A stretch of DNA of 4,755 bases. Origin: a virus. Taxonomy: Duplodnaviria > Heunggongvirae > Uroviricota > Caudoviricetes. The notes beneath the pieces were generated by a model that searched no databases, had not been told where the DNA came from, and saw nothing but the letters and a program-made list of their open reading frames with translations. The stretch is taken from the IMG/VR virus record IMGVR_UViG_2534681626_000012; one strand, written 5' to 3'. The position numbers were made by a program, and so were the translations under genes. Numbering within the stretch: position 1 is the stretch's first letter; each line of letters begins with the position of its first letter. This document shows positions 1,507 through 4,755 of this stretch, piece by piece.

Positions 1507-2205
1507 ATGCAGGATATTCCACAGGAAACACATCATGAGACGACACGCCTCACTCAGTCAGCCCAGGTGGTGCTCTGGGAAATCGATCTGACAGAGGTCG
1601 GTGGTGAACGTTATTTTTTCTGTAATGAGCAGAACGAAAAAGGTGAGCCGGTTACCTGGCAGGGGCGGCAGTATCAGGCATACCCCATTCAGGGGACAGG
1701 ATTTGAACTGAACGGCAAGGGCAGTGCTGCCCGTCCGACACTGACGGTTTCTAACCTGCACGGTATGGTCACCGGGATGGCGGAAGATCTGCAGAGTCTG
1801 GTCGGCGGAACGGTGGTCCGGCGTAAGGTTTACGCCCGTTTTCTGGATGCGGTGAACTTCGTCAACGGAAACAGTGACGCCGACCCGGAGCAGGAGGTGA
1901 TCAGCCGCTGGCGCATCGAGCAGTGCAGCGAACTGAGCGCGGTCAGTGCCTCTTTTGTACTGGCCACGCCGACGGAAACGGACGGCGCTGTTTTTCCGGG
2001 ACGTATCATGCTGGCCAACACCTGCACCTGGACCTATCGCGGCGATGAGTGCGGTTATCACGGTCCGGCGGTCGCGGATGAATATGACCAGCCAACGTCC
2101 GATATCACGAAGGATAAATGCAGCAAATGCCTGAGCGGTTGTAAGTTCCGCAATAACGTCGGCAACTTTGGCGGCTTCCTTTCCATTAACAAACTTTCGC
2201 AGTAA
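1507..2205 (+). CDS. L: Tail tip protein L (232 aa), with C-terminal cysteine cluster
   Basis: 232-aa ORF with a strong SD. C-terminal cysteines (C173, C182, C205, C208, C212) fit the iron-sulfur cluster reported for lambda gpL. Length and position match gpL. Confidence 0.9.
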   Translation: MQDIPQETHHETTRLTQSAQVVLWEIDLTEVGGERYFFCNEQNEKGEPVTWQGRQYQAYPIQGTGFELNGKGSAARPTLTVSNLHGMVTGMAEDLQSLVGGTVVRRKVYARFLDAVNFVNGNSDADPEQEVISRWRIEQCSELSAVSASFVLATPTETDGAVFPGRIMLANTCTWTYRGDECGYHGPAVADEYDQPTSDITKDKCSKCLSGCKFRNNVGNFGGFLSINKLSQ

Positions 2206-2210
2206 ATCCC

Positions 2211-2953
2211 ATGACACAGACAGAATCAGCGATTCTGGCGCACGCCCGGCGATGTGCGCCAGCGGAGTCGTGCGGCTTCGTGGTAAGCACGCCGGAGGGG
2301 GAAAGATATTTTCCCTGCGTGAATATCTCCGGTGAGCCGGAGGCGTATTTCCGTATGTCGCCGGAAGACTGGCTGCAGGCAGAAATGCAGGGTGAGATTG
2401 TGGCGCTGGTCCACAGCCACCCCGGTGGTCTGCCCTGGCTGAGTGAGGCCGACCGGCGGCTGCAGGTGCAGAGTGATTTGCCGTGGTGGCTGGTCTGCCG
2501 GGGGACGATTCATAAGTTCCGCTGTGTGCCGCATCTCACCGGGCGGCGCTTTGAGCACGGTGTGACGGACTGTTACACGCTGTTCCGGGATGCTTATCAT
2601 CTGGCGGGGATTGAGATGCCGGATTTTCATCGCGGGTATGACTGGTGGCGTAACGGTCAGAATCTCTATCTGGATAATCTGGAGGCCACAGGGCTGTATC
2701 AGGTGCCGTTGTCAGCGGCGCAGCCGGGCGATGTGCTGCTGTGCTGTTTTGGTTCATCGGTGCCGAATCATGCCGCATTTACTGCGGCGACGGCGAGCTG
2801 CTGCACCATATTCCTGAACAACTGAGCAAACGAGAGAGGTACACCGACAAATGGCAGCGACGCACACACTCCCTCTGGCGTCACCGGGCATGGCACGCAT
2901 CTGCCTTTACGGGGATTTACAACGATTTGGCCGCCGCATCGACCTTCGTGTGA
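2211..2953 (+). pseudogene. K: Tail tip assembly protein K (JAB/MPN metallopeptidase + NlpC/P60 domains), reading frame interrupted near 2772-2780
   Basis: The frame from ATG 2211 has an intact JAMM motif (H68-S-H70-x7-S78-x2-D81, nt 2412-2453) and the NlpC/P60 Cys (DCYTL, nt 2571-2573) and first His (VPNH, 2769-2771), then runs into ...AAFTAATASCCTIFLNN and stops at 2823-2825. The rest of the NlpC/P60 signature (IYCGDGELLHH...) is in another frame, 2777-2953. One extra nt near 2776-2778 would restore a 247-aa ORF ending at 2953. Confidence 0.75.
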
Positions 2954-3498
2954 AAACGGGGGCCGAAGCCATCCGGGCGCTGGCCACACAGCTCCCGGCG
3001 TTTCGTCAGAAACTGAGCGACGGCTGGTATCAGGTGCGCATTGCCGGGCGTGATGCAGGTGAAACCGAATTATCTGCCCGTCTTAATGAGCCGCTGGCAA
3101 ATGGTGCCGTGATCCATATCGTGCCGCGTCTGGCGGGAGCTAAAAGTGGCGGTGTGTTTCAGGTGGTGCTGGGGGCGGCGTTGATTGCGGTGGCATGGTG
3201 GAACCCTGTGGGCTGGCTGGGTGCCGCGGCTGTATCGGGCATGTATGCGGCAGGTGCCAGTATGATGCTGGGCGGTGTGGCGCAGATGCTGGCACCGAAA
3301 GCCAGAACGCCCCGCACACAGACAACGGATAACGGCAAACAGAACACCTATTTCTCCTCACTGGATAACATGGTTGCCCAGGGCAATGTTCTGCCTGTTC
3401 TGTACGGTGAAATGCGCGTGGGGTCGCGGGTGGTTTCTCAGGAGATCAGCACGGCAGACGAAGGGGACGGTGGTCAGGTTGTGGTGATTGGTCGCTGA
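2851..3498 (+). CDS. I: Tail tip assembly protein I (215 aa): N-terminal ubiquitin-like domain, C-terminal hydrophobic Gly/Ala-rich segment
   Basis: ATG at 2851 is the only start after the in-frame TGA at 2815-2817. It overlaps the 3' end of the K frame-2 segment by 103 nt, as K and I do in lambda. Product begins MAATHTLPLASPGMARICLYGDLQRFGRR...; stop TGA at 3496-3498. Confidence 0.85.
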   Translation: MAATHTLPLASPGMARICLYGDLQRFGRRIDLRVKTGAEAIRALATQLPAFRQKLSDGWYQVRIAGRDAGETELSARLNEPLANGAVIHIVPRLAGAKSGGVFQVVLGAALIAVAWWNPVGWLGAAAVSGMYAAGASMMLGGVAQMLAPKARTPRTQTTDNGKQNTYFSSLDNMVAQGNVLPVLYGEMRVGSRVVSQEISTADEGDGGQVVVIGR

Positions 3499-3516: not shown

Positions 3517-3536
3517 AAACCGCCTCCGGGCGGTTT
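3517..3536 (+). other. I-J intergenic stem-loop (AAACCGCC / loop TCCG / GGCGGTTT) followed by T-rich tract; terminator-like or mRNA-stabilising hairpin
   Basis: Perfect 8-bp inverted repeat, 3517-3524 pairing with 3529-3536, 4-nt loop, then TTTTGTCGTTT. Sits in the 60-nt gap between the I stop and the J start. Confidence 0.4.
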
Positions 3537-3558: not shown

Positions 3559-4755
3559 ATGGGTAAAGGCAGCAGTAAGGGGCATACCCCGCGCGAAGCG
3601 AAGGACAACCTGAAGTCCACGCAGTTGCTGAGTGTGATCGATGCCATCAGCGAAGGGCCGGTTGAAGGTCCGGTGGATGGATTAAAAAGCGTGCTGCTGA
3701 ACAGTACGCCGGTGCTGGACACTGAGGGGAATACCAACATCTCCGGTGTCACGGTGGTGTTCCGGGCCGGTGAGCAGGAGCAGACTCCGCCGGAGGGATT
3801 TGAATCCTCCGGCTCCGAGACGGTGCTGGGTACGGAAGTGAAATATGACACGCCGATCACCCGGACCATCACGTCTGCAAACATCGACCGTCTGCGCTTT
3901 ACCTTCGGTGTGCAGGCACTGGTGGAAACCACCTCAAAGGGGGACCGGAATCCGTCGGAAGTCCGCCTGCTGGTTCAGATCCAGCGTAATGGTGGCTGGG
4001 TGACGGAAAAAGACATCACCATTAAGGGCAAAACCACCTCGCAGTATCTGGCCTCGGTGGTGGTGGGTAACCTGCCGCCGCGCCCGTTCAATATACGGAT
4101 GCGCAGGATGACGCCGGACAGCACCACAGACCAGCTGCAGAACAAAACGCTCTGGTCGTCATACACCGAAATCATCGATGTGAAACAGTGCTACCCGAAC
4201 ACGGCACTGGTCGGCGTGCAGGTGGATTCGGAGCAGTTCGGCAGCCAGCAGGTGAGCCGTAATTATCATCTGCGCGGGCGCATTCTGCAGGTGCCGTCGA
4301 ACTATAACCCGCAGACGCGGCAATACAGCGGTATCTGGGACGGAACGTTTAAGCCAGCATACAGCAACAACATGGCCTGGTGTCTGTGGGATATGCTGAC
4401 CCATCCGCGCTACGGCATGGGGAAACGTCTTGGTGCGGCGGATGTGGACAAATGGGCGCTGTATGTCATCGGCCAGCATTGCGATCAGTCGGTGCCGGAC
4501 GGTTTTGGCGGCACGGAGCCGCGCATCACCTGTAATGCGTACCTGACCACACAGCGCAAGGCGTGGGATGTGCTCAGTGATTTCTGCTCTGCGATGCGCT
4601 GTATGCCGGTATGGAACGGGCAGACGCTGACGTTCGTGCAGGACCGACCGTCGGATAAGGTGTGGACCTATAACCGCAGTAATGTGGTGATGCCGGATGA
4701 TGGTGCGCCGTTCCGCTACAGCTTCAGCGCCCTGAAGGACCGCCATAATGCCGTT
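3559..4755 (+). CDS. J: Tail tip / host-specificity protein J (central tail fibre), N-terminal 399 codons; 3' end lies beyond the window
   Basis: ATG at 3559 with GGAG at 3547-3550. Frame is open to the window end. Product begins MGKGSSKGHTPREAKDNLKSTQLLSVIDAISEGP..., recognised as the lambda gpJ N-terminus from memory. The ATG at 3555 hits TAA after two codons. Confidence 0.9.
   Translation, partial: MGKGSSKGHTPREAKDNLKSTQLLSVIDAISEGPVEGPVDGLKSVLLNSTPVLDTEGNTNISGVTVVFRAGEQEQTPPEGFESSGSETVLGTEVKYDTPITRTITSANIDRLRFTFGVQALVETTSKGDRNPSEVRLLVQIQRNGGWVTEKDITIKGKTTSQYLASVVVGNLPPRPFNIRMRRMTPDSTTDQLQNKTLWSSYTEIIDVKQCYPNTALVGVQVDSEQFGSQQVSRNYHLRGRILQVPSNYNPQTRQYSGIWDGTFKPAYSNNMAWCLWDMLTHPRYGMGKRLGAADVDKWALYVIGQHCDQSVPDGFGGTEPRITCNAYLTTQRKAWDVLSDFCSAMRCMPVWNGQTLTFVQDRPSDKVWTYNRSNVVMPDDGAPFRYSFSALKDRHNAV

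Follow-up and report, generated by a model that had tools for sequence, protein, structure and literature searches.

Our analysis of the window (the whole stretch of DNA studied, 4,755 nt) showed that tail assembly gene K lacks a single base as deposited, and that the resulting frameshift is very probably a consensus error produced by merging the reads of paralogous prophages, and not a property of phage DNA. This explanation is favoured because the position of the gap coincides with a site at which the paralogues differ, because deletions of this kind recur 17-fold in the assembly of a sister isolate, and because no independent record confirms the lesion. The split of K is best regarded as not a real feature and brings nothing new biologically, with a small residual chance that it is an ordinary prophage pseudogene; the case for an artefact was built from consensus sequences.

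The window corresponds to the entire contig APYR01000015.1 of the draft assembly GCA_000358795.2 (E. coli P0299917.8). This strain is an enterotoxigenic E. coli (ETEC) from a case of cholera-like diarrhoea in Dhaka in 2011, belonging to a project in which HiSeq2000 paired ends, 300-bp inserts, a coverage of >200x and the Celera Assembler were used, and in which 9 of the 10 isolates from patient P0299917 were closely related or clonal, the exception being P0299917_1 (PMC4462620). The reads behind the P0299917.8 assembly were 100-bp Illumina reads. The contig carries a lambda-like tail module, H'-M-L-K-I-J', whose order, established from the ORF map and Pfam labels (Phage_tail_L for L and Lambda_tail_I for I), is that of lambda and of 10 genomes. 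On the plus strand, on which all the features given here lie, the 3' part of the tape-measure gene H occupies positions 1-1168, M 1168-1497, L 1507-2205, K as deposited 2211-2825, the tail assembly gene I (215 aa) 2851-3498 and the 5' part of J 3559-4755; the contig termini fall within H and J. Most E. coli carry this lambda-type tail module as a repeat (3 places per genome at the median and 14 at most), which would explain its assembly as a short stand-alone contig.

Alignment of K with lambda J02459, PV340536, PhiR30_1 and 16 further relatives showed that one base is missing at 2776/2777 and that the gene is otherwise free of indels. The relatives read GCC GC(T/C/A) ATT TAC at this site and the window reads GCC GCA TTT AC; the gap form of the junction is GCCGCATTTAC, and the gap site lies between CATGCCGC and the positions equivalent to TTTACTG. 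What is lost is the third base of the Ala189 codon, where the relatives have T, C or A. Frame 0 from 2211 gives a protein of 204 aa with the C-terminal end ...VPNHAAFTAATASCCTIFLNN before the stop codon (the same terminus can also be written HAAFTAATASCCTIFLNN, followed by the stop). Residues 1-189 of this protein are native gpK while the last 15, FTAATASCCTIFLNN, are out of frame up to the TGA at 2823-2825. The final 58 codons of K (residues 190-247, including His199/His200, CAC CAT at 2804-2809) lie in the -1 frame at 2777-2953. This frame is open over 2741-2953, forms a downstream ORF of 70 aa from the GTG at 2741, contains IYCGDGELLHH and reads ...IYCGDGELLHHIPEQLSK...STFV before its stop codon. 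The addition of one base led to a continuous K of 247 aa, ending at 2953 and overlapping I (start at 2851) by 103 nt. The original prediction had described these frames and coordinates, the product of a one-base repair and an indel of one nucleotide near 2772-2780, and the alignment and the repaired translation, with its full Pfam matches, agreed with it on each point.

The lost base was probably a T located between the C and the A, as in the closest intact relative (L190), which has GCT ATT at this site. The loss had been worded as a contraction of the homopolymer AA to A; the loss of one nucleotide stood, but the identity of the base did not, since L190 carries a T and the lost base need not be an A, which weakens the contraction as a candidate.

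The JAMM metalloprotease motif HSHPGGLPWLSEAD (2412-2453, H68...D81) is intact and belongs to a Prok-JAB/MPN domain of residues 3-104, in which the pattern E...HxHx7SxxD is present as E19 and H68-S-H70-x7-S78-x2-D81. Cys121 (2571-2573), the predicted NlpC/P60 nucleophile, and His187 (CAT, 2769-2771), the second catalytic residue and the last before the shift, lie upstream of the gap, and the third catalytic residue, His199 (2804-2806), is found 12 residues past H187 in the shifted frame, as had been foreseen. PF14464 (Prok-JAB, cutoff 25) scored 52.7 bits over residues 3-104, and 52.3 bits with the repaired protein. NLPC_P60 (PF00877, cutoff 23) increased from 20.3 bits with the deposited protein (profile positions 1-69 of 105) to 47.5 bits with the repaired one (1-105 of 105). 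The downstream 70-aa ORF spans positions 64-105 of the NLPC_P60 profile. The NlpC/P60 peptidase domain is therefore split in the deposited sequence. A search of PDB sequences with K matched only a JAB-domain relative (2kks), and the NlpC/P60 half had no match there.

Synteny, DNA identity (98%) and domain content mark K as a typical lambda gpK family protein, with a metalloprotease-like JAB/MPN domain and a cysteine-peptidase-like NlpC/P60 (C40) domain. Lambda gpK (247 aa, for example PV340536; C40 family peptidase or Prok-JAB + NlpC/P60) occupies the same place between L and I, and the 98% identity between lambda and the window holds over 2150-3000 (851 nt around K). The JAMM motif, Cys121, His187, His199 and the 103-nt overlap with I are common to both; unlike lambda gpK, the deposited K lacks the base at 2776/2777, stops at 204 aa and has an NlpC/P60 match below the Pfam threshold. 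Two features of the family, a complete Cys-His-His NlpC/P60 domain on one polypeptide and a single ORF of about 247 codons, are thus wanting in the deposited K, and both are present once one base is restored. The repaired K of the window differs from lambda K by six amino acids (E142G, D143Y, R227H, V240A and others).

A single missing base likewise cuts K in the 1982 lambda reference (J02459/NC_001416) and the records that derive from it, where the gene is annotated as 199 aa. J02459 lacks a G after position 14266 (14266/14267, equivalent to window position 2345), and this loss does not affect the NlpC/P60 end but the N-terminal JAB part, where the first 48 codons are out of frame, leading to a 199-aa K that starts with MSPEDW. 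The window has this G, as do re-sequenced lambda genomes such as PV340536 and every other relative aligned there, some K types having a T instead, and the 247-aa K of re-sequenced lambda begins 6 nt after L.

We then assessed the rarity of the lesion. A 40-mer centred on the deletion junction was found in none of 5,426 complete E. coli genomes, on the T-2771 and C-2771 backgrounds alike, and the repaired 41-mer was found in 30 of these genomes, always within an annotated C40 peptidase. Searches of GTDB species representatives, IMG/VR and JGI metagenomes with a degenerate 29-nt deletion pattern found no match. The 204-aa K protein (GenBank ENC84724.1) is present on one contig in a collection of about 15 billion proteins, and the I protein of the window (215 aa, or 182 aa from an alternative start) is on no other contig of this collection. 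The sole other carrier of the 2776 gap is the sister assembly P0299917.9, which comes from the same pipeline. In complete genomes, none of 13,348 places matched the 501-nt K-I stretch at 2560-3060 of the window at 99% or more, the best reaching 98.6%; as a control, the same stretch of about 502 nt from the independently isolated phages mEp460 and vB_EcoS-569R4 gave 100% matches, with 43-44 records at 99% or above.

A two-frame arrangement shared by K homologues, an outcome that the original prediction had allowed for, was not found, since K is an uninterrupted 247-aa frame in 192 of 200 full-length copies (all loci fetched). The other eight copies, window included (7 of the 199 others), are disrupted, at other positions except in the sister assembly. 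Among ten genomes with an identical L protein, eight have a 247-aa two-domain K, one has a 199-aa call and K is absent from one locus. The six further disrupted copies, on metagenome and IMG/VR contigs (L161, L070, L137, L134, L029 and L260), are broken elsewhere than at 2776, by a 2-nt deletion at 2732-2733, a G deletion at 2297 (two loci), a G deletion at 2500, an A insertion at 2265 and a premature stop. The background of broken K in public contigs is about 3-4%.

The comparison of the window with its relatives showed that the gap lies where two K types meet. L190, a contig from a human gut metagenome (USZI01000156.1, 45,584 bp), has an uninterrupted K; restoring the base in the window and replacing Y143 by D gives a protein identical to that of L190. 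This 247-aa protein (P0016) was found exactly on 3 contigs, of which L190 is very likely one. The K of the window differs from that of L190 by substitutions at 2561, 2597 and 2637 only, plus the gap, and the flanking genes (L, I and J) differ by 1-2%. Position 2637 is a T in the window and a G in the closest K haplotype (D143Y); the T belongs to a second K type, represented by L053, L069 and L267, and is present on 11 IMG/VR contigs (these three and eight more), all of them from draft isolate genomes. In the 5,426 complete E. coli genomes, none of the 7,559 places that matched carried this second K type, identified by the T at 2637, and its occurrence seems limited to a population that only draft assemblies have sampled. 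The D143Y substitution had been considered as a private damaging mutation marking the decay of K; this was rejected, as it is a normal allele of another intact K type.

The second (L053) type has an intact K with a T at 2597 and a C at 2776. Three of the four differences between the window and L190 in K (2597, 2637 and 2776) are located at sites where the L053 type differs; the window has the L053-type base at 2597 and 2637 and a gap at 2776. Tiling of the window by greedy exact matches against about 300 loci placed a switch of donor exactly at 2776/2777, from the L053 type over 2597-2776 to the L190 type over 2777-3016. In a panel of 16 sequences, 91 of the 744 columns of K vary and 4 of the 744 are tri-allelic, and the gap column is one of these four. 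An assembly chimera of the whole K was rejected for most of the gene, since the P0016 protein is present on 3 contigs and matches in DNA with L190. A mosaic test that counted donor switches in the 16-sequence panel did not discriminate, as the natural phages mEp460 and 569R4 also need many switches.

The sister isolate P0299917.9 (L080; IMGVR_UViG_2531839126_000015, tail region 4220-8958 on the minus strand), which was picked up by a haplotype-specific pattern scan, has its proteins in GenBank (ENC84455.1 and ENC84457.1) on a contig of 148,448 bp. It shares the patient, the clone, the sequencing, the assembler and the 2776 gap with the window, but has 16 more single-base deletions in K and J. 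The two sequences are identical across 1-1604, and over the 4,755 bases there are 42 substitutions and about 20 gap openings. Compared with 14 natural relatives, L080 has 17 deleted bases, the 2776 gap included, and no insertion. Although variable columns make up only 8.7% of the total, twelve of these 17 deletions fall on a column that varies among the relatives (binomial P = 7.7e-10); of the remaining five, four adjoin a variable column, and the fifth (2561) is variable when lambda and the window are counted. The deletions of L080 in K are at 2561, 2776, 2785 and 2792, and the last three are among the four local sites at which the L190/ET729 type has T, C, C and G and the L053/L095 type has C, T, T and A. 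At the variable sites that are not deleted, alleles of the window type and of the L095/L053 type alternate on a fine scale. L080 also carries 1605A, found otherwise only in L053, L267, L302, L304 and L298, and 4542T, found otherwise only in L053 and L267. The deletion of the window is of the same class as those of L080, being a deletion at a discordant site on a haplotype switch. A prophage divergence of 1% with 16 indels is not expected between two clonal isolates of one stool, so that both assemblies are read as composites of paralogues, most simply as mixtures of reads that stem from two or three such tail modules.

The deletions of L080 split K into ORFs of 117 and 129 aa and J into several pieces, and the fragments are stored in GenBank as separate proteins (ENC84455-ENC84458); those at 2776, 2785 and 2792 total -3, so that the frame is regained after 17 nt. 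The window reads CACGGTGTG at 2559-2562, the G-run that is deleted in L080. The context of this G-run deletion is unique to L080 in IMG/VR and was found among complete genomes only in CFSAN029787, and the 117-aa N-terminal K fragment is present on 6 contigs. The recurrence of this fragment was considered as a sign that the G-run deletion is real, but the CFSAN029787 record looks error-prone and the lead has no bearing on the window. In this nominally complete genome (L306; NZ_CP011416.1, E. coli CFSAN029787, 1-3762), one prophage has H, M, L and K each annotated as frameshifted, the lesion in K being a contraction of GGGG to GGG, and these lesions resemble homopolymer errors that an early long-read assembly left uncorrected. 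Another draft genome, whose IMG genome ID falls in the same range (L082; IMGVR_UViG_2531839583_000012), 96.5% identical to L080, shares four of its deletion positions in J (window-equivalent 4558, 4651, 4654 and 4739; net -4 bases), which are either a recurrent assembly artefact or a shared real lesion.

A consensus error would have arisen as follows. The P0299917 clone would carry several lambdoid prophages whose H-M-L-K-I-J modules are 97-99% identical, and with 100-bp Illumina reads and the overlap-layout-consensus method of Celera, the reads of the paralogues would have been piled into one multiple alignment. At discordant columns the consensus would sometimes have taken the base of the other copy (2597T and 2637T), and at 2776, where one type has a T and another a C, a gap would have been called. 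The true K copies of the strain would then be ordinary uninterrupted 247-aa tail-assembly proteins with the JAB and NlpC/P60 domains, as expected. The assembler presumably emits gaps at discordant columns, as the pattern of L080 suggests. We infer both this mechanism internal to the assembler and the presence of a second K type in the strain, the L053-type prophage of P0299917.8 being putative. Alternatively, the window and L080 may represent distinct, real prophages of the clone rather than one locus assembled twice.

We weighed this consensus error against a real recent deletion that inactivates K in one lambdoid prophage of the P0299917 clone, which we consider unlikely. In the resulting K, the JAB/MPN domain would be intact, but the NlpC/P60 domain joined to it would lack its third catalytic His and the last 58 residues, and since lambda gpK is needed for tail assembly (it is absent from virions; PMC12617516, PMC10721106), the prophage could form infectious tails only with K provided in trans by a co-resident prophage. 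The loss of a protein that is essential for tails and absent from virions is a plausible route of prophage decay, and the frameshift is indeed in the deposited sequence, the sister assembly also lacks the base, as a member of the clone would, and 7 of the 199 other K copies are disrupted. Moreover, indels are rare in a high-coverage (>200x) Illumina consensus and the base was not lost from a long homopolymer, both of which speak against an artefact. However, a random deletion would fall on a tri-allelic column in about 0.5% of cases and on any variable column in about 12%, and this one coincides with a haplotype switch; the downstream part of K has no other lesion, no other genome, metagenome or protein record carries the deletion, and the only other record with the gap, L080, has 16 further artefact-like deletions. 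The original prediction had left the choice between an inactivated copy and an error of one nucleotide, and this pair includes the answer, but the biological frameshift placed in its headline is the less likely branch because the lesion is a singleton on a repeat contig, at a discordant site and a haplotype switch, and the sister assembly contains similar errors.

The deletions could also have arisen in vivo, for example by faulty heteroduplex mismatch processing in gene conversion between co-resident prophages, and have been assembled faithfully, which we hold to be extremely improbable. The deletions of both sister assemblies are on paralogue-discordant sites and adjoin haplotype switches, a pattern that this process would also produce, but none was found at these sites in the 5,426 complete genomes or in about 290 other loci that are equally mosaic, and 16 of the 17 deletions are not shared by the two clonal isolates of one stool, a difference more in keeping with assembly noise than with inheritance. 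We know of no mechanism that results in single-base deletions at paralogue-discordant sites in vivo. That recombination in vivo has left an ETEC clone with a K genuinely split within the NlpC/P60 domain is very unlikely. The probability that the two-frame K is functional, through a programmed -1 frameshift, transcriptional slippage or two polypeptides that reassemble, is close to nil. Lambda tail G/GT is a well-known programmed -1 frameshift, and the downstream frame of K is open from the GTG at 2741; however, there is no zero-frame X_XXY_YYZ heptamer and no homopolymer of at least 5 in 2735-2825, no Shine-Dalgarno sequence precedes the GTG at 2741, the recovery of I190 and Y191 needs a shift exactly at GCA/TTT, which is not slippery, and with 192 of the 200 homologues in one 247-aa ORF the arrangement is conserved nowhere. 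Programmed frameshifting and a deliberately split gene were therefore rejected. Taken jointly, the explanations other than an artefact or a real inactivating mutation retain very little probability.

If the deletion were true, it would make one more defective lambdoid prophage in ETEC, which is common and unsurprising, and the roles of the JAB and NlpC/P60 domains of gpK would be no clearer. The case calls mainly for caution, as the short repeat contigs of early Illumina/Celera drafts can hold pseudogene-like frameshifts, and the GenBank 'hypothetical protein' ENC84724.1 has already been made from the frameshift in K.

Some observations were made on the sequences around K. The start of I is annotated inconsistently, either at the ATG at 2851 (215 aa, with the 103-nt overlap with K) or at a GTG at 2950-2952 (182-190 aa). 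The latter sits in a GTGA overlap with the stop codon of K, and both starts are used in RefSeq and GenBank records of near-identical sequence. A scan for promoters and terminators around K gave nothing beyond the expectation from shuffled sequences. The I-J spacer contains, at 3517-3536, a perfect 8-bp inverted repeat, AAACCGCC-TCCG-GGCGGTTT, followed by GTCGTTT, which was not called by the terminator scan because its T run is too short; position 3526, in the loop of this repeat, differs among the relatives.
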